Source: a virus (lineage: Duplodnaviria; Heunggongvirae; Uroviricota; Caudoviricetes). Taken from it: a stretch of DNA of 64,000 bases. The stretch is from the IMG/VR virus record IMGVR_UViG_3300044259_000172. One strand, written 5' to 3'. Both the position numbers and the translations under genes were made by a program. Under the pieces are notes generated by a model. That model worked only from the letters and a program-made list of their open reading frames with translations. It searched no databases and was not told the DNA's origin. Shown piece after piece: positions 2,780-60,111 of this stretch (position 1 is its first letter; the number at the start of each line of letters is the position of its first letter).

Positions 2780-3658
2780 TTAACTTCCATACGTAAATAA
2801 GTCTGCAATAATACCTGATCTTGATTTTCTGATATCTTCTTTCGTAAGAGGATACAATTCCAGAAAGGTCAAATCTAAATTAGTAAATGCCATATTTTGA
2901 TCTTTAAGAATTTTAGGACCATATGGAGCATAATCAACATTCATATTAGTCAAAACTAATGTTTGTAATTTAGGAATTCTAGTTCCTACAAATTGTAATT
3001 CAAAAGAATCAGGAATAAAATATGATGAAAGATCTCCTCCTGACAATTCAGGATGAGATGATAATTCTAGATAATAAATTAGATTTTCTAAGGTTTTCGA
3101 TTCGGTAGAATTTCTAGGGGCAAATTCCCAAGAAAATGTAAATGTTCTAAACGACACCCCATTATAGTAAATTTCTTTGAATGGATTAGAAACTGCTCCA
3201 ACATTTTTTTGCATAAGTTTTCTTAAACCTAAGGTAGGAGCAATATCAATCAATTTATTCTTTGCAGCATCTCCAAAACTTCTACCGGCATCCGCTACTG
3301 AAGAAATATCTCCATTATTAACTCTTGCTATAGCTTGTTCAAGGAATCCTGTTTCTTGTTGAGACCAATCATTTGACCAAGAAAACGGAATATTTCTAGG
3401 AAGAGGTAAAGCAATCGAGGATGTAAGTCTACTAACAGCAGAAAATTTATTGCCTCCTGATGTATCTTCAACTGGAACGGTAGTTCCAGCAGAAGTTATA
3501 GTTGAAGATTTTGTATCATTATGCCTAGTGTTTTTAACAGTTATCTGAGTATAAGTTATATTATCAGGAACTTTTGTCCCTGATATTGTAGATGAGTTTG
3601 AATTATTTTCATCATCAGATGTTATTGTCGAACTAAGATCAAATACTTGAAGTGCCAT
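2780..3658 (-). CDS. putative virion structural protein (292 aa; S/T-rich N-terminus)
   Basis: ORF; context next to tail genes; product assignment contextual only. Confidence 0.5.
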   Translation of the reverse strand: MALQVFDLSSTITSDDENNSNSSTISGTKVPDNITYTQITVKNTRHNDTKSSTITSAGTTVPVEDTSGGNKFSAVSRLTSSIALPLPRNIPFSWSNDWSQQETGFLEQAIARVNNGDISSVADAGRSFGDAAKNKLIDIAPTLGLRKLMQKNVGAVSNPFKEIYYNGVSFRTFTFSWEFAPRNSTESKTLENLIYYLELSSHPELSGGDLSSYFIPDSFELQFVGTRIPKLQTLVLTNMNVDYAPYGPKILKDQNMAFTNLDLTFLELYPLTKEDIRKSRSGIIADLFTYGS

Positions 3659-3679
3659 TTACTATTTATAAGATTTATT

Positions 3680-4496: not shown

Positions 4497-4724
4497 TATA
4501 GATTTTAAGATTTCCTTTAAAATATTATACACCGGTCCTAGAATGTTGTACACAAAATAATGACAATTATTTCATAATTTCATTCAATTTGTCTCTCAAT
4601 GTATCAATAATATCTTTCGATTCACCTTTTATAATTGCATCAAGTTTTTCATATCGAACTCTTTGACTTTGCTAAAATTATTATACAAAATAAATCTCCT
4701 AAAGTAAACACTAATAAATAAAGA

Positions 4725-5168
4725 ATGAGTGGAAGACGGACATATCAAGGACAATATTATCCAATAAATGAATCGAAATATATTGGAGATCCTACAAAAA
4801 TAGTTTATAGATCATCATGGGAACTTCTCTTTTCAAAGTTTTTGGATTTTAATTCAAATGTAAAATTTTGGTCTTCAGAAGAAATTGTAATTCCTTATTA
4901 TTTTCCTTTAGACGGAAAAATGCATAGATATTTTCCAGATTATTGGGTAGAATTTCATAATGGGAAAAAGGTCATTATTGAGATAAAGCCTTATAATGAA
5001 ACTATAGAACCTGTCCTTAAAAAGGGAGGAAACAAAAGAGTTTTTGCGGATAGAATGGCAACATATTTAAAAAATAAAGCAAAATGGGAAGCTGCGAAAG
5101 AATTCTGTAAAGACCGAGGATGGGAATTTCATGTTTTTGATGAGCATTATTTAAAAAGATTGAAATAA
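4725..5168 (+). CDS. hypothetical protein with PD-(D/E)xK-like motif (FPDYW...VIIEIKP)
   Basis: plus-strand ORF after strand switch; D...E-x-K spacing consistent with restriction-endonuclease-like fold (weak). Confidence 0.45.
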   Translation: MSGRRTYQGQYYPINESKYIGDPTKIVYRSSWELLFSKFLDFNSNVKFWSSEEIVIPYYFPLDGKMHRYFPDYWVEFHNGKKVIIEIKPYNETIEPVLKKGGNKRVFADRMATYLKNKAKWEAAKEFCKDRGWEFHVFDEHYLKRLK

Positions 5169-5195
5169 ATATCAAATAAGAATAAGGAATAGAAA

Positions 5196-8100
5196 TTGGC
5201 TTTGGATATTAAAAAGGTCTCAATTGGAGAAATATTTCCATTTGAAAATAAAGATGAAGGATTTTCAGGAGATTCTGTTAGAGAAGCATTTGACAAATAT
5301 AATCAAAATTTTGATGCAATAAGTTCTCAAATTGGTGGAGGTTCAGGAACTGGTACAAATATTTCTGATTCCTATATTGATGCAAATACGGATTATACAC
5401 AATTCTTTAATGGAGAATCTCTTCTAGATTGGTCAGTTTCTAATGGAACTTTGACCATTGATAATTCTACATCAGAAGCTATCTGGACAGCAAATTCAAA
5501 TTCATATATTTACAGAAAATCAACAGCAATTAATGGGAAAAGATTCACTCATTTTGTTATAGAAATTGTAAGGGTTTCAGGAGGAGCGGTTCCTAATCAA
5601 AGAGTAACTACATTTTCTCCTAATCACGATTTTAATTTTTCTGTAAATTATGCTCAACCTATTGGAAATCCAGTTTCAATTCTGGTAGGTGACACAACTA
5701 TTTTAGTCTTTCCTCTTTCTGATATTCAAGATTGGACTGCAGGAACTACAACAGGTTTAGCTTGTAAATTATCAAATTCAGCAGGATCATATAGAATTAA
5801 ATCTATTAGATTAGTAGGACCTGATTCTTCATTCGTTCAACAAGCTTCTATAGCAGCCGGCAATGCTGCTACTCAGGCAGAATTAGCACAGACTTTAGCT
5901 GAAGCATCTGCTCAACTTTCAGATATTAGAGCTACTGCTGCTAATGATGCTAAAAATTTAGCTGAACAATTTAAAGATCAATCCAATGATTTTGCAAATC
6001 AAGCCCAAGGTTTTGCAATTGATGCCTCAACATATTCTGAAAAATCAAATTTTTCAGAATTAATGTCTACAGCAGCATCAAGATTTGCTCTTTATCAGCA
6101 AATAAATCCTAATGCCAATTGGGATTTTTCTGATGGAGGAATTCATGGATGGACAGGAGTTAATGCGACTTTAACAAATTCAGGATCAACTCTTAAAGTA
6201 ACTCATACTGATCTTGATGGGCAGATTTTTTCCCCTGTTTCTCTTTCATCTTCTGGGGTGATTTATACAAAAGTTGTAATCAAAGTTCATGTGGAAACCG
6301 GAGTTGTTCCGGATTTTACCCAATGTAGATTATTTTATACAACCACATCAAGACAAGCATTTAATGCTGATTATTACATTTCTCCTATAGGGTTTGAAAA
6401 ATTAACTCTTAATGAGAATAATAATGTATATTTAATGTTTGATGCTGACACACCAGGAAGCCCTCAAAGTGATTGGGAAACGTCAACAATAAGGCAATTG
6501 AGATTTGATTTAGCGAATCAAAATCCATTAGTCTATGATATTGATTACATTTATCTTCTTGGAACAGATTCTGCATTTCCTTATAAACAAGCTCAAGCTG
6601 CTGCAACATCAGCCCAAAATGCTGGAACGTCTGAAACTGCTGCTCAGCAATTTGCTCAAGCTTCTCAGACATTTGCTACAGCGGCTCAAACTTCAGAATC
6701 AAATGCTTTGACTTCAGCAAATCAAGCTTCTGTATCTGAAACAAATGCTCAAGGAGCAGCTACAACTGCCACAACTGCTTCATTGGCAGCAGCTCAGTCT
6801 GAATCAAATGCCTCAAATTCATCAGGACAGGCACAATCATATGCAACCCAAGCAGCCTCTTCTGCTTCTTCTGCGGAAGGTTCTTCAGTTGCAGCTTCAC
6901 AATCAGCAACAGTTGCAGCTAGAGTTTCTCAAGGAATTCCGGTTTCTCTAAATCCTGTATTCAATAATTGGCCAACATCAGGACTTCCATACGGTGGGCA
7001 ACTTCTTCCTGGAACTAATTTAGTCAATATTGTCAAAAATACTGCCAATGCAATTTATTCGCCATATGCTTTGCAATTTAATATTCCTTCATCTTCAGAT
7101 TTTGGAGTAGAATTTAATAGTTCATCGACCCAGACTTCTGTTCAATTAGTTGATGTAGAATATTATGTAGCAGAAATTGATATGGCTTTGGTAGCAGGTG
7201 ATGGGGCAGCAACTGGAATTGAAATTGCTAAAATATTTTCTGACACTACTTCTGTTGTGACTACTATTCCATTTTCAAGTTTCACTAAATTCTCTTCAAA
7301 TCGCTATCAATATTCAGGATTAGTTCCGCTATCAACCCCTACTGGCAAAACTATTTCTACGATTAGAATTAGAATTTATGGAAATAATGCAACAATAGGA
7401 ACAGGAATAGCAAAAACTATAATTTGGCATAAAGTAAATATTAGAAGTGCTTCTTCATCAGAAATAGTTGCTAATAAAGTAAATGGAGAAGTTTATGCTT
7501 TAGTTCAACAAGAAGCTGATGCTAGAATTGCTGCGGATGGAAGTATCTCATCTAAGTATACTGTAAAAATTGATAATAATGGTTATATCTCTGGATATGG
7601 ACTGATTGCGACAGAAAATAATGGTGTTCCAACTTCAGAAATGAGTTTTCTAGTTGATAAGTTCAAGGTTGTTTCTCCTGGAGCAGGTGGAACAGCTGGA
7701 ACTCCTACTCAAATGTTCTCAGTGGGTTCTGTGAATGGAATTACTTCGATGGTTCTTAATGGAAACCTAATAGCTGATGGAGCTATTTCTTCTAGATCTC
7801 TTTTAGTTGGAATAGGCGGAAATTTAATTGATAATGCAGATTTCTCAGCAAGTCTGAATTATTATTCAATGTATCAACAAGGAACATCTCATACCCTTAC
7901 TCTCGACAATTCATCAGTGTATTCAATTCCTCAAGGATCTTTAAGACTTTATGGAAACACCGCTTCTACGACTGATTTTGCAAATTGCCTTATGATGGAT
8001 TCTTCTGGAAATTTTAAGTCATATTCGATTACTCCAGGAAAAAGATATGAATTTTCTGTTTATCTTTTTGGTTTGAGATGTAAAGGTGGCCCACGTATCC

Positions 8101-27005: not shown

Positions 27006-27219
27006 TTTCCTTATTTTTAAAATTCTTCCAATAATTACGAGCAGCTCTTGAGGAATGTCTCTTCATAAATTTATGTCCTTCCGCCCCATAATAGCCATGA
27101 TCATCATCATGTGTATTATAACCTTTTGGATGAGAACTATCCGGTCCACAACGACTATCTTTTGGACTATCATCACGACCTTTATTAAGGCCATTATCAT
27201 ACCGGGTTGTTCTAGACAT
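26983..27219 (-). CDS. hypothetical basic His/Asp/Gly-rich protein (78 aa)
   Basis: ORF track. Confidence 0.4.
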   Translation of the reverse strand: MSRTTRYDNGLNKGRDDSPKDSRCGPDSSHPKGYNTHDDDHGYYGAEGHKFMKRHSSRAARNYWKNFKNKEIEKFYVE

Positions 27220-27512
27220 TGCTTCCTCGCAATTATGTTATCTTACATAAATTATACGAAAATGGTGAGTAAAATATTCATCTACCGTATTATAGTGTTT
27301 ATCCTCTACCGTTCTCCATTTCCATTCAATCCAATCAAATGAAGTATTAAATCTAATCATAATTATTCTTTCTTATCATATTATGAAAATATTAGAAACA
27401 AAAATTATTCCAACTTAACACCTATATTTCATAGTTTCGTCTCGAGCATCCACTATGATCATTCAAGCTAAATAATTCCACGTATGGGTTTCTAATATTT
27501 TCCTAATAAGAT

Positions 27513-50312: not shown

Positions 50313-51449
50313 TTATTCTACTTCATCATCAGATTCTTCAGATATAGAAGTAAGCAACTCATCATCAGATATAATATCAGATTCAGGAAGTTTATACTTT
50401 TCAATTAACTTTTCTCGGAAATTTGAATTTGCAAATAATTCATCGAACCAAGAATTTGTAATTTCCCTTTTAAACCATGACTTCGAATCTTCAATTATTT
50501 CGCCAGTAGTTTTATCAAACATAAGCCTCTTATATCTACCATTCGAAGGTTTTTCAATAACCCCAAGTTCAAGACCAATATCCAAAAGACCAGTATATTT
50601 ATTGATCCCGCCTTTAAAATTAACAGTAATAGGAATAATTGATCCCTCTTTTACATATCTAGATTTTTCAATTTTAATTTTGAATGTAAATCCAGAAAGA
50701 GCATCTTTCTTTGTATTTTCATCCTTTTCCGTTTCTTTAGATTTGGAAATAAAGAAAATATTTGTTGCTGAATAAGTTCCACCTGTTCCACCACCCATAA
50801 TAGTTTTTGGGAACATTCCGATTTCAGAATAAACGTGATTGATAGCAATACAAGGAATATCTTGAAGAGTGAAGTAAGGGGTTACCATGCGGAACAATCC
50901 TTTTAGGGCCTTCGCTCTAGACATATCAGCTACTGATTTTTCGTCAATAGCATCCTGAAGTTCTTTCTTAGAAGCCAAATTACCAATAGAGTCAATTAGA
51001 ATGCATACCTTTTCTTTAGGAAGCTTCTTTTTGATATTTTCTATATTTTGTTCTTTGATAGCTTCAAGCTTATTTACGATATCAAATTTAAATTCTTCGA
51101 CATTCGCAATGGGAACATGGATTACTCTAGACATATCAATTCCAGCTCCTCTCCAATAGGACAGGGTAGTACCAAATTCAGAATCGTAAAATATGCAATA
51201 TCCATCTGGATGTTTTTTCAAATAAGCCGAAACTGCAATCAATCCAAAAATAGTTTTGAAGTGTTTTGATGGAGCAGCAAAGAAATGAAGACCTGATCCC
51301 ATTCCACCAAATGGATCTCCTGAAAATGCAACATTAATACCAAGAACTGATATCTCAGTAAGTTCTTTTTCATTAAAAAGAACACTTTCATCAAGAGGAG
51401 CTGAAGCAGTATTTTGTTTAACTAGTTTTTTAAAAAATTCTTTAGACAA
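50313..51449 (-). CDS. uvsX: UvsX RecA-like recombinase
   Basis: extended identity to T4 UvsX: CIFYDSEFG, DSIGNLASKKE...MSRAKALKGLFRMVTPYF, IPCIAINHVY. Confidence 0.9.
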   Translation of the reverse strand: MSKEFFKKLVKQNTASAPLDESVLFNEKELTEISVLGINVAFSGDPFGGMGSGLHFFAAPSKHFKTIFGLIAVSAYLKKHPDGYCIFYDSEFGTTLSYWRGAGIDMSRVIHVPIANVEEFKFDIVNKLEAIKEQNIENIKKKLPKEKVCILIDSIGNLASKKELQDAIDEKSVADMSRAKALKGLFRMVTPYFTLQDIPCIAINHVYSEIGMFPKTIMGGGTGGTYSATNIFFISKSKETEKDENTKKDALSGFTFKIKIEKSRYVKEGSIIPITVNFKGGINKYTGLLDIGLELGVIEKPSNGRYKRLMFDKTTGEIIEDSKSWFKREITNSWFDELFANSNFREKLIEKYKLPESDIISDDELLTSISEESDDEVE

Positions 51450-52713: not shown

Positions 52714-55213
52714 ATGGATTTTCTTCTACATTACTTTCGGGTTTGATTCCGCAAATAGCAGCTACTTTATCCATAGGATTTTTAAAAGAATCTGCCCAAA
52801 TAAGATCATAATTCATGTCTTTTCTTAAGATTTCTTCTAATTCCAAAGGAATTTCATTTTTCCATCCAATGCAATTAGACATCGCAATATTTGGAGTTTT
52901 CAGTTTCATTAATTTAATTTTATCTCCTTCTACAATGTCTGAATATTTCTCTGTTAATTTAAGGTCTTTTATCATTTTATTATAAGCAATAGCACCTTTA
53001 GAATTGAATGGTGTTCCTTTGATAGGTCTTCCGTTTCCATCCAAATATTGAGAAATACCATTAACAGAAGAATTTGTAGCAATTTCATTAGGAGAAAATT
53101 TATAAAATAAAGATTCGAAAGAATTAATCTTTGAATAATAACCATCTCTTCCTTCAAAAAGAAGAGTTTTGAATACTTCAGTCATTTCATTTCTTAAAAC
53201 TTCAGGAGTAGAAGATTTGATAGCTTCCATTCCTGTAATTTTAATTTCTTCTCCTCTATCATAGAGGGCTCCTTCTTTATTCCGGATAGACATAATATAT
53301 CTTTTCTTGGCTACAAAAATAGCAGAGTCAGAGACTGCTTCTCTTTTCATATCAAGAGCACCTCTATCGATACAATTTAAATATTCAGCAAAATTTGCAA
53401 TTGATTTTGCAATTAATTTGTTAATATTTTCATCAGAAAATTTAGTGACAAATTCTAAAGCCTTTTCATTATCATAAATTTTTCCGAATTTCTTTTCTAC
53501 AATATCTCCAAGATCTACATAGATCGAATCTGTGTCAGAAGCAATAATTCTATCCTTTTTATCTCCCATCAATTTTTGAAGAGAAGCATTTACATCTCTA
53601 ATTACCCAACCGATCATAGATTGTCCACCCAAAGTGATTGCTTCTGCAATATCAATATCATAAAATCTAAAGAAACGAGCTCCTGTTACTCCATAAATAG
53701 AATTCAAAAGAACCTTCATAGCATTTTGATAAGTATCATATTCTTCGGAAAGTTCTTTATTATGATCTTTATCAGCTTGAACCTTCAAAGCCTTATATTT
53801 AGCTCTTTCTTTAAAAAGATATCTGATAACATCAGGCATAAATCCATCTTTATTTCTGATAAAGACTTGTCCATTTCCTGCGACAGTCCAATCATTTTCT
53901 AAGATTTCATCATTAACAAATGTCTTTCCTATAATAGAAGCAGGAGAAATTGGAAACTTCTTTTTAACCTTTGTTTCCGGAGAAATATTCATAGCTCTGA
54001 TAAGAGAAGGATATTCAGAAGTTACATCGAAAGAAACTACCCATCTATATTTTCCCGGAATTGTTTCTTTTACAGCAGCTCCTTCAAATTGAGCCATAGG
54101 AGGAGCTTCATATTTCCATTCAAAATACTTTCCTCTTTCCTTTAGAAAAGTATAAAACATCATGTCAATAATTCTCATATTCGTAAGAATATCTTCAAAA
54201 TTCGTATAAGAAATATAAGAAATTACCTGAGTGAGATAAATTAGCTTAAGTTTAGCTTCAAGTTGGACCAAAAGCCTAACGTCTTGAATATTATAAAGAA
54301 GAGCATCACTAAAATACTTTCTATAAAGCAGATGCCCCGGAATACCAGAATGATGCTTTAATTTTTCAGATTTTAATTCTACTTTAGCAATATAATCCAG
54401 AGTATATTGTTCTCTAGGTTTCTTGATAAACTTTTTATAAACTTCCTTATAATCAAGGATAGTAATACCTTTAAGAAGGATTTCTAGGGCAGGATTTCCA
54501 TAATCATCTTCCCCATCTCTAGTCTGAATGATTCCATAAGGAGAAAGTTTTTTAAATAAATCTTCATCTAAAAGTTTAAATGCTCTCTGATGAATATAGA
54601 CGATGTCGAAAAATTTAAAATTCCATCCGGTCATGATATCAGGATAATCCGAAGAATGAAATCTAATATATTTAGTCAAAAGTTCTTTTTCATCTTTACA
54701 TTTTACATAACCAACTTCATCTTCTTGTTCATCAAATTTATGAACAGGCTTATTATGCACATAAAAGCACGTATAAGATTTAGATCTAGTTGAAAATGTT
54801 GTGATAATGTTAATTTCTTCTCTTGCCCCGATAGGATCAATTTTACCGTGCTCAACGGTAGTTTCGATGTCTACATAATGAGTATGGACTAAAGAATAAT
54901 CTACCTTTTGATTTTTGAAATTTTCATAAATATAAGAATTGGCTACTTTTGAATAACCATAAACCGGAAAATTAGAAGAATCGTATTGTTCTATTAAGGC
55001 TTTTAATTCATATGGATTTTCATTTGAAGAAATCTTCACAAGAGGTTTACCAAAAATATCTTGAGCGTCAGGTTTTACCTGACTATCCCTAGATGTCATT
55101 TTAATAAAAATGTCCGGAGTATAATTCTTCACAATAGAATAAGAAACTCTATTATTTGAATCAATATATTTTACATGGATTTTGTTCTTGAAAGAAAAAT
55201 AATTTAAATACAA
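52706..55213 (-). CDS. gp43: family B DNA polymerase (T4 gp43)
   Basis: 835 aa; exonuclease and polymerase motifs including IIASDTDSIYV (DTDS) and K-x3-NSxYG-like SIYGVTG. Confidence 0.9.
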   Translation of the reverse strand: MYLNYFSFKNKIHVKYIDSNNRVSYSIVKNYTPDIFIKMTSRDSQVKPDAQDIFGKPLVKISSNENPYELKALIEQYDSSNFPVYGYSKVANSYIYENFKNQKVDYSLVHTHYVDIETTVEHGKIDPIGAREEINIITTFSTRSKSYTCFYVHNKPVHKFDEQEDEVGYVKCKDEKELLTKYIRFHSSDYPDIMTGWNFKFFDIVYIHQRAFKLLDEDLFKKLSPYGIIQTRDGEDDYGNPALEILLKGITILDYKEVYKKFIKKPREQYTLDYIAKVELKSEKLKHHSGIPGHLLYRKYFSDALLYNIQDVRLLVQLEAKLKLIYLTQVISYISYTNFEDILTNMRIIDMMFYTFLKERGKYFEWKYEAPPMAQFEGAAVKETIPGKYRWVVSFDVTSEYPSLIRAMNISPETKVKKKFPISPASIIGKTFVNDEILENDWTVAGNGQVFIRNKDGFMPDVIRYLFKERAKYKALKVQADKDHNKELSEEYDTYQNAMKVLLNSIYGVTGARFFRFYDIDIAEAITLGGQSMIGWVIRDVNASLQKLMGDKKDRIIASDTDSIYVDLGDIVEKKFGKIYDNEKALEFVTKFSDENINKLIAKSIANFAEYLNCIDRGALDMKREAVSDSAIFVAKKRYIMSIRNKEGALYDRGEEIKITGMEAIKSSTPEVLRNEMTEVFKTLLFEGRDGYYSKINSFESLFYKFSPNEIATNSSVNGISQYLDGNGRPIKGTPFNSKGAIAYNKMIKDLKLTEKYSDIVEGDKIKLMKLKTPNIAMSNCIGWKNEIPLELEEILRKDMNYDLIWADSFKNPMDKVAAICGIKPESNVEENPWL

Positions 55214-55247
55214 TTGATCTTGATTTCCTTTATTTTATAAATAGTTT

Positions 55248-56150
55248 ATGATCAATAAAATTTTTGAAGTGGAACATAATCCACATTATATCAATCGTTA
55301 CTTGAAGTTTATTAATTCTATCAAAGAATTAGGTGAAAGAACACATTTAATTACAGAAAAACATCATATATTACCAAGTAAATTATGGCCAGAATTTAAA
55401 AATCTTAGACAAAATAAATGGAATATGGTTAAACTTACTTATAGAGAACATTTTATCGCTCATCTTATTTTATTTAAGTGTTTTTGTGGAAATAGAAAAA
55501 TTAAAATGCTTCAAGCTCTAAATTTTATGATGAAGCATTCCAAAAAATCAAGTGTTTATCAAATCAAAAGAACTGAGTGGTTTCTCAAATTCGGTAAAGG
55601 AGAAAATCATCCTAATTTTGGAAATACTCATTCTCCTGAAACTCGGAATAAAATATCTGAATTTAGAAAAAATTTTACAGGTTGGAAACATTCCAAGGAA
55701 ACAAAATCTAAAATATCAAATACTAAAACTGGTAAACTTCGCTCAGAAGAAACTAAAAAGAAAATATCGGAATCACATATAGGTAAAATACTTTCAAGTG
55801 AAACAAAAGAAAAAATATCGAAAACTACAACAGGGAAAATTGTTTCTGAAGAAACAAAAGCCAAAATGTCAGAATCTCGAAAAGGAGAAAAACATCCTCT
55901 TTTCGGAAAAACTCATTCTGATGAAACCAGAAAGAAAATGTCAGAATCCCATAAAGGAGAAACCTCGCCAATGCGCGGAAAAACTCATTCTGATGAAACC
56001 AGAAAGAAAATGTCAGAAGCCCATAAAGGAGAAAAACATCCAATGTTTGGAAAGCCTCGATCTGAGGAAACAAAGGCCAAAATATCAGAATCCAAAAAAG
56101 GAAAGCTTCGCGGGCCTTATAAAAAGAAAAATCCGCGAATCCTGATTTAA
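55248..56150 (+). CDS. free-standing HNH homing endonuclease with about 8 tandem NUMOD3 DNA-binding repeats
   Basis: N-terminal HNH_3-like EKHHILPSKLW...NMVKLTYREHFIAH; repeats GKTHSDETRKKMSESHKGE...; only plus-strand gene in the replication module. Confidence 0.75.
   Translation: MINKIFEVEHNPHYINRYLKFINSIKELGERTHLITEKHHILPSKLWPEFKNLRQNKWNMVKLTYREHFIAHLILFKCFCGNRKIKMLQALNFMMKHSKKSSVYQIKRTEWFLKFGKGENHPNFGNTHSPETRNKISEFRKNFTGWKHSKETKSKISNTKTGKLRSEETKKKISESHIGKILSSETKEKISKTTTGKIVSEETKAKMSESRKGEKHPLFGKTHSDETRKKMSESHKGETSPMRGKTHSDETRKKMSEAHKGEKHPMFGKPRSEETKAKISESKKGKLRGPYKKKNPRILI
55860..56050 (+). repeat. near-perfect ~60-bp tandem nucleotide repeat inside the endonuclease gene (NUMOD3 units)
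   Basis: ggaaaaactcattctgatgaaaccagaaagaaaatgtcagaa(t/g)cccataaaggagaaa occurs twice. Confidence 0.7.
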
Positions 56151-56231: not shown

Positions 56232-56639
56232 TTATTTTCTCTTCTTTGAATTTACAGGAATTTCAAATTCTTTGATAATTTCTTTTTTTTGATCTTCAGA
56301 AAGAAATTTAATCATTTCCAAAGATTTATCAAGAGATAATTTATGATATTTTTGAAGAGTATTTAATACTTCTTGATCATTTTTACCTGAAAGCTTTTTA
56401 GGCCATTTTGACCATCTCTTTCTTTTTGAAACTAAAGTATGAAGAAAATGATATTGGCATGATGGAGGAATAGAAGGCCTCATATTCATTTCATCAGCCA
56501 ATAAAATTGTATCCATATGGAGTGATAAACCTCTATTTACCATAAAGGCATTATATTCATTTGGATCCAATTCTCCAGTCAGAATTTGATTATCAGAAGA
56601 TTCAGAAACAGAATTTATGAAATCAAAAGGAGTGCTCAT
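56232..56639 (-). CDS. gp62: clamp loader small subunit (T4 gp62)
   Basis: FMVNRGLS and RKRWSKWPKK align to T4 gp62 FMVENALS / GKRYGKWAKL; 4-bp overlap with gp44 gene. Confidence 0.7.
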   Translation of the reverse strand: MSTPFDFINSVSESSDNQILTGELDPNEYNAFMVNRGLSLHMDTILLADEMNMRPSIPPSCQYHFLHTLVSKRKRWSKWPKKLSGKNDQEVLNTLQKYHKLSLDKSLEMIKFLSEDQKKEIIKEFEIPVNSKKRK

Positions 56640-57592
56640 TGAAATTCCGCTTCTGACATAATCTTAGTTAAAGTAGCTACCAATTTCAATTCCTTATCAA
56701 CTGCTGAAGCCATAGTAGTTTGAGCTTCATCTAGAAAAATGACAGCCTGAGGAAAAGTACTCATGACAAAATATTTATGCCCATTGTGATACAAATCAAG
56801 AATAATTTCCATTGCATCATCTACATTTTCTCCTACCCACTTTCGCATCTTATTCCACTCTTTATCCTTAAGATACTTGATAAGTTCAGTAGAATCAGAT
56901 TTTTTAATATAATCCAAAATTCCAGAATCGATAGACCCTACAGCAGAATAATGCTGAATTGCATTAATAATGCGCCGCATATCAGGAAAATACTTCACAA
57001 CAAGAGTTTTAAGGACTTCTGTGTCATATTCATTAATTCCTTCAGATTTTAGAATGAAAATTAGACGACGAATAAAATCCATAGCCAAAGGTTTCATTTC
57101 ATTCTTAGGAATTTTAAGGTCAATAACATGACACCTAGAAATCAAAGCATCGAGCAATCTACCTGGAAAATTGCATGTTAGAATAAATCCACAATTATCA
57201 GAATTTGCTTCAATAACAGATCTGAGAGCCAATTGAGCATCTCCTGTTAGATTATCAGCCTCGTCATAAATGACCATTTTTCGCTTATTACCACCATCCC
57301 AAGAAACGGATGTAGCAAATTTACCTACCTTATTTTTTACTGTATCAATTCCTCGATCTTCTCCAGATCCTTGAAGGAACAAATAATCAATTCCCAATTC
57401 ATTACAAATAGCCTTAGCAAGGGTAGTTTTACCTACTCCGGCATTTCCGGCTAAAATCAAATCAGGAATATTTCCTTTATCACGAAATGCAATAAATTGC
57501 TCTTTAATTTTAATTGGAAGAATTGCATCTTCTACAGTCTGGGGCCTGTATTTTTGGGTCCAAACAAATTCATCTACTTTAGTTTTCATCAT
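56636..57592 (-). CDS. gp44: clamp loader large subunit (T4 gp44, AAA+)
   Basis: Walker A GNAGVGKTT, Walker B VIYDEAD, SRC-like motif; T4 gene order. Confidence 0.85.
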   Translation of the reverse strand: MMKTKVDEFVWTQKYRPQTVEDAILPIKIKEQFIAFRDKGNIPDLILAGNAGVGKTTLAKAICNELGIDYLFLQGSGEDRGIDTVKNKVGKFATSVSWDGGNKRKMVIYDEADNLTGDAQLALRSVIEANSDNCGFILTCNFPGRLLDALISRCHVIDLKIPKNEMKPLAMDFIRRLIFILKSEGINEYDTEVLKTLVVKYFPDMRRIINAIQHYSAVGSIDSGILDYIKKSDSTELIKYLKDKEWNKMRKWVGENVDDAMEIILDLYHNGHKYFVMSTFPQAVIFLDEAQTTMASAVDKELKLVATLTKIMSEAEFQ

Positions 57593-57654: not shown

Positions 57655-58350
57655 TTAACTTTCAAATCTTGAGAACTTTTGAATTGAAATCCAGTAGTCG
57701 ATACGTTCATTGAAAAAGTGAATAATCTTAGCCTGATCATTGAAGAAAATTCCAACTTCATAATTATCAACAAGCATAACTAGATCTGAAGCTGCAACAA
57801 CAATATTAAAATCTTGATCTGTTTCTACATCTACATCAATTGTATAAAGATTCGCTGAAGGATCAAAATCCTTTGTTTCTTTATGAAGTTCTCCTGCAAT
57901 GACACTCAACTTTCCTCCCTTTGAATAGAATGCAATATATTCAAATCCATTCGCAGAGATGGCAGAAAGAAGTCTAGACAAAAGCTCATTTGACAGAGAA
58001 AATTGATAATTATAATCTAGGGCAGGTGGAATCTTGTCTGCCCAAGTCATAGTATTCTTATTGGAATAAGCAATCTTTTGCTTTCCATACTTATCTGAAA
58101 TAGTAAGAGAAGTATCTCCTAATTCAAGATCTGGACCACCTTCAGCCTTAAAGATTGAATAAATTGAAAGAAATTCTTGCAAAGAATAAAGAGAAATTTC
58201 TTTATTAAAGGTTTCATCTGCTCTATATCGAGCACCAATAGTTTTGCCTTCATTTCTAGTTCGAATTTCATTTCCAGGCTGAATTACAATATTCGGCTCA
58301 ATAACGGAAAAATTCTTTAGTACCTTTAGTGTCTTATCAGATAGTTTCAT
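57655..58350 (-). CDS. gp45: sliding clamp (T4 gp45)
   Basis: 231 aa; N-terminus MKLSDKTLKVLKNF matches T4 gp45 MKLSKDTTALLKNF; position. Confidence 0.8.
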   Translation of the reverse strand: MKLSDKTLKVLKNFSVIEPNIVIQPGNEIRTRNEGKTIGARYRADETFNKEISLYSLQEFLSIYSIFKAEGGPDLELGDTSLTISDKYGKQKIAYSNKNTMTWADKIPPALDYNYQFSLSNELLSRLLSAISANGFEYIAFYSKGGKLSVIAGELHKETKDFDPSANLYTIDVDVETDQDFNIVVAASDLVMLVDNYEVGIFFNDQAKIIHFFNERIDYWISIQKFSRFES

Positions 58351-58407: not shown

Positions 58408-60111
58408 TTAAAGTTCTTTTAAGACTGAAAAATTTGAAACTTTTTCCGCTATAAGAGTCCTTGAAAATTTGTCTTGCATTCTAGCATTATGACTAATAAT
58501 GAAAACATTCATATTAGATTCCTTTAAAAGTTTTGTAAGGAAGTCTACCCCTTCTGCATCCATAGATGAATCGAAAATTTCATCCATACATAAGATATTC
58601 GCAGAAATAGAATTTTTGATTTTTGCAATTTCTATGAAAGCAAAAAGAATGGCAAGATTAATTCTTGATTTTTCTCCTTCAGAAAATGAAGAATATGAAA
58701 ATTTATCTCTAAATCTAGATTTAATTGTTTCATCAAAATTTTCATCTAAATAGAATGAAATATAAAAATCCATCATAGACAAATACTTATTGATTAGATT
58801 ATTAAGCATAGGAAGATAAGTCGATATAATTTTAGATTTTATACCAGAATCTGACGAAAGTTTCAAACAAATATCATAATATTTGAGTTTTGAGATACCT
58901 TTCTTATACTTTTCAATTGATTCGTTTAAAGTATTTACTAAATTATCAAGTTTTTCTTGGTATTCTTTATATGATACATCTTCAGTATTTTCCAAAGATA
59001 AAATTTTATCTTTAATCTTTATCATATAATTATTCTGACTTTGTAATTCGGAGAAAGCCTTTGATCTCTTCTCTTTCATTGAAATAGAAAATTCTAATTC
59101 ATTTTGATATTCATTAGTTCTTTCCTCTAATTCCGCTTCAAGAATAGAAATTTCTTCCTTCATTCTAACGGTTTCAGAATCAATTTCTTCGCACGAATGA
59201 GCCTTAAATTCTGAATCAATTGATTGACTACATGTAGGACAAATATCATTTGATTTAAAAAAATTTAATTCTTTTAGAGATTTATTTAAATCATTCTTTG
59301 ATTCTCGTATTTTTGATTTAATGTTTTCGATATAGGATTTTTTATTAGATAAGATTTCGTCAGATACGACTTTTGCTGAGAAGATTCCATCAATTTCTTT
59401 AATATTTTTGCTGAAACTTCTGAGTTTATCTTCGATTGATTCGAGTTCATTCTTAAATTCCTTGATTTGATTTTCTTTATTATTCTCTATATGAGAGATA
59501 AATTCTTCATTTTCGGAAATAGATCTCTTAAGTTGAGAAACCTCTGAATTAAGTTCTGTCAATTGAGATTTATGTTGGCCTATAGTTTCTTTTATAGTAT
59601 CCGCCATAATGGAAAATACAGATAAGTCTAAAAGTTCTTCTGTAATTTCTCTTCTTGCGAATGTAGGCAATTCCATAAAGGGTTGATATTTCGCAGAACC
59701 TAGAATTTCAATCTGGGTAAATGATCTATATGATTGTTTTAAGATTTGGGTTTCTAGAATTTTTTGATAATCTCTGTTTTTATTATCTTGATTTAATAAT
59801 TCTCCATTAAAATAGACCTCAAAAATAGTAGGTTTGATCCCACGTCTAACTTTATAATGTCCATTATTCGCCGTGAATTCAAGTTCGACCAGACAATCCT
59901 TTTCATTCATTGAATTGATCAATTGGTCCTTTTTAATTTTTCTAAAAGCCTTGCCATACAAAGCAAATGTAATGGCATCAAGGAAGGTAGATTTACCTTC
60001 CCCATTTTTACCTATAATAAGAGTAGATTCACTTCTAGAAAGATCTAATTCCGTAAATACATTTCCATATGAAATGAAATTTTTAAATCTTAAAGTTTTA
60101 AATGTTAGCAT
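58408..60111 (-). CDS. gp46: recombination endonuclease subunit gp46 (SbcC/Rad50-like ATPase)
   Basis: N-terminal Walker A GKNGEGKST, coiled coil, C-terminal signature/D-loop region. Confidence 0.85.
   Translation of the reverse strand: MLTFKTLRFKNFISYGNVFTELDLSRSESTLIIGKNGEGKSTFLDAITFALYGKAFRKIKKDQLINSMNEKDCLVELEFTANNGHYKVRRGIKPTIFEVYFNGELLNQDNKNRDYQKILETQILKQSYRSFTQIEILGSAKYQPFMELPTFARREITEELLDLSVFSIMADTIKETIGQHKSQLTELNSEVSQLKRSISENEEFISHIENNKENQIKEFKNELESIEDKLRSFSKNIKEIDGIFSAKVVSDEILSNKKSYIENIKSKIRESKNDLNKSLKELNFFKSNDICPTCSQSIDSEFKAHSCEEIDSETVRMKEEISILEAELEERTNEYQNELEFSISMKEKRSKAFSELQSQNNYMIKIKDKILSLENTEDVSYKEYQEKLDNLVNTLNESIEKYKKGISKLKYYDICLKLSSDSGIKSKIISTYLPMLNNLINKYLSMMDFYISFYLDENFDETIKSRFRDKFSYSSFSEGEKSRINLAILFAFIEIAKIKNSISANILCMDEIFDSSMDAEGVDFLTKLLKESNMNVFIISHNARMQDKFSRTLIAEKVSNFSVLKEL

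Follow-up and report, generated by a model that had tools for sequence, protein, structure and literature searches.

The 64,000-nucleotide stretch of the virus record IMGVR_UViG_3300044259_000172 analyzed here (hereafter the window, carried on a 154,347-bp contig) derives from a deeply divergent, uncultivated T4-like phage with 30% GC, and an endonuclease cassette fills the gp62-gp43 slot of its replication module, which in all comparable T4-like phages holds the translational repressor gene regA. The cassette is an open reading frame (ORF) of 300 amino acids with an ATG start at 55248-56150 on the plus strand, placed between gp43 and gp62 and antisense to both, that encodes a predicted Mob-type HNH nuclease domain followed by an array of NUMOD3 repeats. 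We consider it likely that this gene encodes a free-standing homing endonuclease of the T4 Mob type that has taken the place of regA, homes into the 62/regA/43 region of relatives lacking it and is probably expressed late in infection. Free-standing homing endonucleases are common in T4-like phages (T4 has twelve), so that another one is unsurprising. The nuclease is thus an ordinary kind of phage element, but the displacement of a near-universal gene by such an element is unusual. The features on which the analysis rests are as follows.

55248-56150, plus strand: free-standing homing endonuclease gene, Mob-type HNH with NUMOD3 array (ORF, Pfam, PHROG, Mob homology, BFVD folds)
55248-55595, plus strand: N-terminal nuclease domain, residues 1-116 (16-sequence alignment, AlphaFold2 model, Pfam matches of the family)
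55350-55481, plus strand: predicted beta-beta-alpha HNH core, residues 35-78, with E37, H39, H40, N59, H68 and H72
55596-56117, plus strand: eight NUMOD3 minor-groove-binding repeats, residues 117-290 (Pfam, motif scan, TIGR01453, full-length model)
55214-55247: divergent spacer of 34 nt, from the gp43 start to the endonuclease ATG, one edge of the replaced segment
56151-56231: convergent spacer of 81 nt, from the endonuclease stop to the gp62 stop, the other edge of the replaced segment
52706-55213, minus strand: gp43 DNA polymerase, which flanks the endonuclease gene and may serve as target or homology arm (Pfam matches to DNA_pol_B and an exonuclease domain)
56232-56639, minus strand: gp62, small subunit of the clamp loader, the gene on the other flank, which may likewise serve as target or homology arm (Pfam Phage_clamp_A, alignment)

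The endonuclease gene occupies the slot of regA

The placement of the ORF on the opposite strand between gp43 and gp62, as given in a first-pass annotation made from the sequence alone, was upheld by the ORF map and Pfam. To place this arrangement among T4-like phages, 80 T4-like loci (L014-L093) were retrieved from IMG/VR with a gp62 profile of the phage's clade and then surveyed with hidden Markov models (HMMs). Two of them end at gp62; the other 78, together with six loci that represent five lineages of the clade itself, gave 84 informative loci. The HMM survey placed regA directly after gp62 in all 84, including all five clade lineages, and a Mob-type or NUMOD3 ORF in none of them. In the six clade loci, gp62, a regA-family gene (PF01818, 148-159 amino acids) and gp43 lie on one strand without the endonuclease, and regA in relatives begins within the end of gp62 or a few nucleotides beyond it. 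The T4 record gives the order 43-regA-62-44-45. The first-pass annotation had read the locus as an interruption of the T4 order 43-regA-62 with the endonuclease in place of regA, and had proposed comparing its presence or absence across T4-like relatives; the reading agrees with both the T4 record and this survey, in which the gene is carried by no relative rather than by all of them.

Neither regA nor a remnant of it was detected in the window by tblastn or HMM searches. Furthermore, a regA profile search of a large database returned all of the clade regA genes and none on a contig of 154,347 bp, the length of the one that carries the window. Because the gene is missing from the window and has no match on a contig of that length, regA is probably absent from the whole genome.

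The regA gene was counted in the T4 core by Petrov et al. (PMC2993671), but it is dispensable in T4 and is lacking in phages PhiM9 and P10VF (PMC4621102, PMC2993671), an absence that has been called unusual (PMC4621102). The loss of regA therefore has precedent, but in this phage an endonuclease cassette sits exactly in the slot that regA vacated, which suggests a mechanism for the loss. The locus illustrates how a gene of the host phage that is conserved yet dispensable can be eliminated by a selfish nuclease.

The same precedents leave room for two independent events, in which a deletion of regA, of the kind seen in PhiM9 and P10VF, preceded the arrival of the endonuclease in the vacated spacer; the target of the endonuclease would then be gp43 or gp62 of regA-less relatives, as is typical of free-standing endonucleases, whose targets tend to be conserved genes next to their own (Table 1 of PMC2988022). 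We regard this sequence of events as unlikely, since no relative lacking both regA and the endonuclease occurs among the 84 loci and a single replacement event is more parsimonious.

The region upstream of the polymerase gene also departs from that of relatives. Here gp43 starts with TTG (55211-55213, minus strand), at a position homologous to the MYLN[F/Y]F start of relatives, where L004 and L006 have ATG, and its upstream region lacks a TGATAT(A/T)AT motif that is conserved in L001, L002 and L004. A change in the control of polymerase translation may have accompanied the loss of regA. Both junctions were folded as RNA on either strand, with z-scores near 0, and a structured RNA element at the junctions was rejected for that reason.

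The IMG/VR loci also differ in the spacing of this region. The distance from regA to gp43 varies from about 0 to about 4 kb in L014-L093, whereas gp62 and regA are adjacent in 78 of the 78 that are informative, indicating that the variable spot of the module normally lies downstream of regA and not between 62 and regA.

The N-terminal domain is a Mob-type HNH nuclease

We aligned 16 database proteins that have a homologous N-terminal domain. Residues E37, H39, H40, P43, H68 and H72 are invariant across these homologues and N59 is conserved in at least 90% of them, giving the family pattern ExHHIxP...NxVxLTxxEHxxxH, which contains the conserved His(-His) base, the Asn and the metal-ligand His of the HNH superfamily. 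In the AlphaFold2 model (predicted local distance difference test score, 82) the HNH residues fall on a unit of two strands (37-40 and 60-63) and a helix (65-78), so that the predicted topology around them is beta-beta-alpha. Judged by these residues and by the modelled fold, the N-terminal domain is an HNH nuclease.

The type of HNH domain was assessed by profile, sequence and fold comparisons. The first-pass annotation had called it an HNH_3-type nuclease, a label (PF13392) that we rejected because no Pfam HNH family matched the N-terminal 125 residues, or the whole protein, even at E<=10. Among the 16 homologues, seven matched PF01844 HNH (best E 2.8e-5), three HNH_5, three HNH_4 and none HNH_3; the domain is PF01844-like rather than of the HNH_3 type. 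The protein matches PHROG 655, "homing endonuclease", with an E-value of 1.7e-36, and blastp of the core gave 38-50% identity to T4 MobB, MobD and MobE and 32% to MobC (E 1e-6 to 1e-9, in a small database). A BFVD fold search returned 46 matches at E<=1e-3, every named one of which is a phage HNH, NUMOD or Mob-like endonuclease, including T4 MobB and MobE/MobD-like proteins. By sequence and predicted fold, then, the nuclease domain is an HNH domain of the T4 Mob type.

The first-pass annotation had also proposed a free-standing, Seg/Mob-like homing endonuclease. The free-standing and Mob-like parts of that proposal stand, the latter on blastp and BFVD, but the Seg-like part does not. No GIY-YIG domain (PF01541) was matched by Pfam in the protein, and similarity to SegA and SegF is either absent or, as with SegA, confined to the NUMOD3 repeats; a Seg-type identity was rejected on these grounds. 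Seg-type GIY-YIG enzymes, I-TevI and I-BmoI have NUMOD3 DNA-binding modules in common with the endonuclease, but their catalytic domain is a different one.

The C-terminal domain is an array of eight NUMOD3 repeats

The remainder of the protein forms a distinct C-terminal DNA-binding domain. NUMOD3 (PF07460) matches with an E-value of 9.1e-56 and 185.9 bits against a cut-off of 20.4, in six significant Pfam stretches, and TIGR01453 matches the C-terminal half (E 1e-19). A chance ORF is ruled out by this profile match together with a length of 300 amino acids in DNA of 30% GC. We counted eight repeats, seven by regular expression and the eighth (about residues 200-209) by eye, and the full-length model contains a short helix for each of the eight, separated by low-confidence linkers; the estimate of about eight in the first-pass annotation is therefore borne out by motif count and model alike. 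The repeats are spaced 17-20 residues apart early in the array and 24 residues apart in its last part. In I-TevI, I-HmuI and I-BmoI, NUMOD3 units form helices that bind the minor groove, and I-BmoI has three of them (PMC3664794).

The array is also visible as two tandem repeats at the nucleotide level, both found with Tandem Repeats Finder.

55698-55867, plus strand: 51-nt tandem repeat, 3.3 copies, 69% matches
55863-56102, plus strand: 72-nt tandem repeat, 3.3 copies, 78% match

The 51-nt array corresponds to the older NUMOD3 units with 17-residue spacing. Within the 72-nt repeat, an offset scan revealed a nearly perfect 59-nt duplicate (55904-55962 against 55976-56034, one mismatch) at an offset of 72 nt. 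The near-perfect 60-bp tandem repeat described in the first-pass annotation is thus real as a duplicate, but its period is 72 nt rather than 60. The pattern of the 72-nt repeat suggests recent duplication or gene conversion among NUMOD3 units.

Homologues are sporadic and lie at different sites

The endonuclease is free-standing: it lies outside any intron or intein, as an ORF of its own between intact gp43 and gp62 genes. P0128, the homologue nearest to it with a nuclease domain 51% identical, is likewise a lone antisense gene, located beside rnh (RNase H) in the all-minus early module of a 170-kb T4-like contig. The homologue in Aeromonas phage Aes508 is antisense and lies beside tk, and a Tequatrovirus homologue lies beside gene 39, at the mobA position. 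Homologues at differing sites, combined with absence from the regA slot throughout the survey, are the distribution expected of a mobile endonuclease; sporadic presence of this kind is characteristic of Mob-type enzymes, although the comparison spans deep divergence.

The gene of the closest homologue (8001-8813 of L007) overlaps the convergent downstream gene at its 3' end by about 55 nt, and the same overlap is found on an independent Logan contig (L008), indicating that the antisense insertion is stable in that lineage.

The depth of the comparison follows from the isolation of the phage. Its gp43 is at most 36% identical to that of any isolated phage, and the nearest relatives in a search of 5.8 billion proteins are 48-58% identical, so that the pattern of presence and absence is a deep one and not a polymorphism within a population. 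Blastn of the 6.4-kb region against GenBank phages gave only short cyanophage matches, scanning IMG/VR with gp43 gave none, and no close relative came to light. When gp43 was compared with six relatives in sliding windows, the nearest relative stayed the same towards the end proximal to the endonuclease, and no signal of co-conversion was seen in gp43. In one clade relative, which also has regA (P0009/P0247, on a Logan contig of 10,495 bp), the gp43 call is only 505 amino acids long (52% identity over 58% of the query); truncation of the call is one possible reason, and a split in the polymerase gene is another.

Comparison with characterized systems

The endonuclease resembles the T4 Mob proteins most closely. 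Mob proteins combine a conserved N-terminal HNH domain with a protein-specific C-terminal DNA-binding domain (PMC2790892, PMC2988022), and their genes are difficult to clone (PMC2790892). The signature YxExHHIxP...NxVxLTxxEHxxAHxLL is found in the N-terminal domains of both, the predicted fold matches, and in both cases the genes are free-standing, sporadic and intergenic between conserved nucleotide or replication genes. By analogy, the enzyme would be expected to nick the adjoining gene strand-specifically in genomes without it, with gene conversion to follow (PMC2790892). There are four differences. The CxGGxDD loop of Mob proteins, between the two strands, is swapped for a longer SKLWPEFKNLRQNKW loop, of a type common to the endonuclease, P0128, P0148, P0139, P0164 and the Aes508 protein; eight NUMOD3 repeats are present here, compared to one or two weak NUMOD3-like matches in T4 Mob proteins; T4 mob genes are co-oriented with their neighbours, whereas this gene is antisense; and T4 mob genes sit between genes, whereas this one takes the place of the conserved regA. 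A Mob subfamily is defined by the changed HNH loop, by a NUMOD3 array that is long and still expanding, and by antisense insertion, the last seen in two other T4-like genomes.

I-HmuI of Bacillus phage SPO1 is similar in joining an HNH nuclease to an extended C-terminal arm with a NUMOD3 minor-groove helix, and its long target is nicked in one strand (PMC3664794). In contrast, I-HmuI is intron-encoded, carries many fewer NUMOD3 units and terminates in a helix-turn-helix that the endonuclease lacks, and the latter gave no match to any PDB chain with phmmer and no significant match in a PDB fold search.

A third comparison is offered by the SegH and Hef cassettes that replace mobC or mobE in T4 relatives (Sandegren et al.), where endonuclease cassettes displace the occupant of a slot or are associated with the polymerase gene. 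There, however, one endonuclease replaces another or the polymerase gene is split, whereas here the replaced gene, regA, is not selfish and gp43 is intact.

A model for homing into the 62/regA/43 region

MobE makes a strand-specific nick in nrdB, the gene adjoining its own, in phages lacking mobE; its gene is passed on at high frequency, and the DNA on its flanks is co-converted (PMC2790892, PMC2988022). From this precedent, and from those of MobA and I-HmuI, we propose that during co-infection the enzyme would bind a long site of tens of base pairs in the 62/regA/43 region of a relative without the gene. The eight-unit NUMOD3 arm would read this site and the HNH domain would nick one strand nearby, nicking being probable rather than another form of cleavage by analogy with the same HNH enzymes. 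Recombinational repair with this genome as template would then transfer the endonuclease gene together with its flanking markers and remove regA from the recipient, and the phage's own genome would be immune through removal or alteration of the site by the insertion or replacement.

The likeliest target appears to be the 62/regA/43 region of regA-plus relatives. A target in gp43 or gp62 and the resulting marker exclusion, both anticipated in the first-pass annotation, are suggested by analogy with MobE, SegF and SegG, and the absent regA segment, with its junctions, is no less likely to be the target than either gene. A more specific version of the model, in which the homing site lies in or immediately beside regA and each homing event turns a regA-plus genome into one that is regA-minus and endonuclease-plus, seems to us rather unlikely. 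If true, it would constitute a natural gene drive deleting a near-universal regulator of the T4 core, with this phage representing a lineage in which the drive is fixed, and the TTG start of gp43 could compensate for the lost translational control. Mapping of the target would provide a long-site nicking enzyme from an AT-rich phage lineage without a cultured member.

The endonuclease might instead be stranded or domesticated, having arrived long ago by homing or illegitimate insertion, with no target population left, and being now neutral or co-opted as a DNA-binding regulator, as an exclusion or competition nuclease against unrelated co-infecting phages, or as a recombination initiator. The gene is indeed compositionally at home, its GC content of 0.303 and its GC content at third codon positions of 0.199 both equal to the phage average, and no close endonuclease-minus relatives are known, the nearest gp43 being the 58% identical one. 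The loss of RegA implies that some rewiring of early-gene control must have occurred, and I-TevI, an endonuclease that also represses the gene encoding it, provides a precedent for such a dual role (reviewed in PMC2988022). Yet all of the catalytic residues are intact in a full-length ORF, the nearly identical 59-nt duplicate indicates ongoing turnover of the DNA-binding array and not decay, and nothing ties the protein to RNA binding or to RegA targets. We therefore hold domestication to be quite improbable, and retain as likely the reading of a free-standing homing endonuclease in the regA slot.

A candidate late promoter precedes the endonuclease gene

The endonuclease ATG is preceded by a match to the late-promoter consensus of T4.

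55236-55243, plus strand: TATAAATA box (T4 late-promoter consensus), candidate late promoter 4 nt upstream of the endonuclease ATG

The box is depleted in the window, with 5 copies compared to 11.7 +/- 3.2 expected. The layout TATAAATA-GTWW-ATG is found at the endonuclease gene and at a gp48-like baseplate gene (2780-3658; box at 3663-3670, minus strand), and a related arrangement, ATAAATA-AAGA-ATG, precedes a gp4-like head-closure gene (4725-5168; arrangement at 4710-4724, plus strand). These consensus matches suggest that the endonuclease is expressed late, from a transcript with a very short leader or none. If the spacing of T4 holds, the late mRNAs of this phage lineage would be nearly leaderless. 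A scan for sigma-70 promoters came close to shuffled expectation (13 sites compared to 8.1 +/- 2.9), and no intrinsic terminator was found in the scan.

Genomic neighbourhood

All of the genes neighbouring the endonuclease are on the minus strand. Beyond gp43 and gp62, they include the following.

50313-51449, minus strand: uvsX
56636-57592, minus strand: gp44
57655-58350, minus strand: gp45
58408-60111, minus strand: gp46-like SMC/Rad50 ATPase

Between about 9.9 and 64 kb, each remaining plus-strand ORF of at least 90 amino acids is overlapped by a minus-strand ORF longer than itself, except perhaps for the one at 27055-27342. The endonuclease is the sole credible plus-strand gene of the replication module, in agreement with the first-pass annotation, which had described it as the only one, and no second copy of it was found in the window.

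The order of genes on both sides is that of the relatives, from uvsX and small ORFs through 43 on one side and from 62 through 44, 45 and 46 on the other. Although the source is a metagenome assembly, this continued synteny, a uniform composition and the recording of an identical gp43 and of an identical endonuclease protein each on two contigs make it scarcely credible that the locus is an assembly artefact, that is, a chimeric contig joining two phages at the regA slot.

Three minor observations concern the surroundings of the gene. A 7-bp GC-rich inverted repeat, TTCGCGG...CCGCGAA with a 19-nt loop, lies at 56107-56139 of the window, in the 3' end of the endonuclease ORF; a T-rich run follows it on the minus strand, so that the repeat might weakly terminate transcription coming out of gp62, and its fold is no better than that of shuffled sequence. 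In the clade relative L006, three extra genes (RyR-domain, DUF1353 and SpoU-type methylase; 4605-6031) are inserted between gp44 and gp62, breaking the usual overlap of 44 and 62. Finally, the ORF at 27055-27342 on the plus strand (95 amino acids, ATG start), which is free of any longer minus-strand overlap, may represent a second antisense gene.
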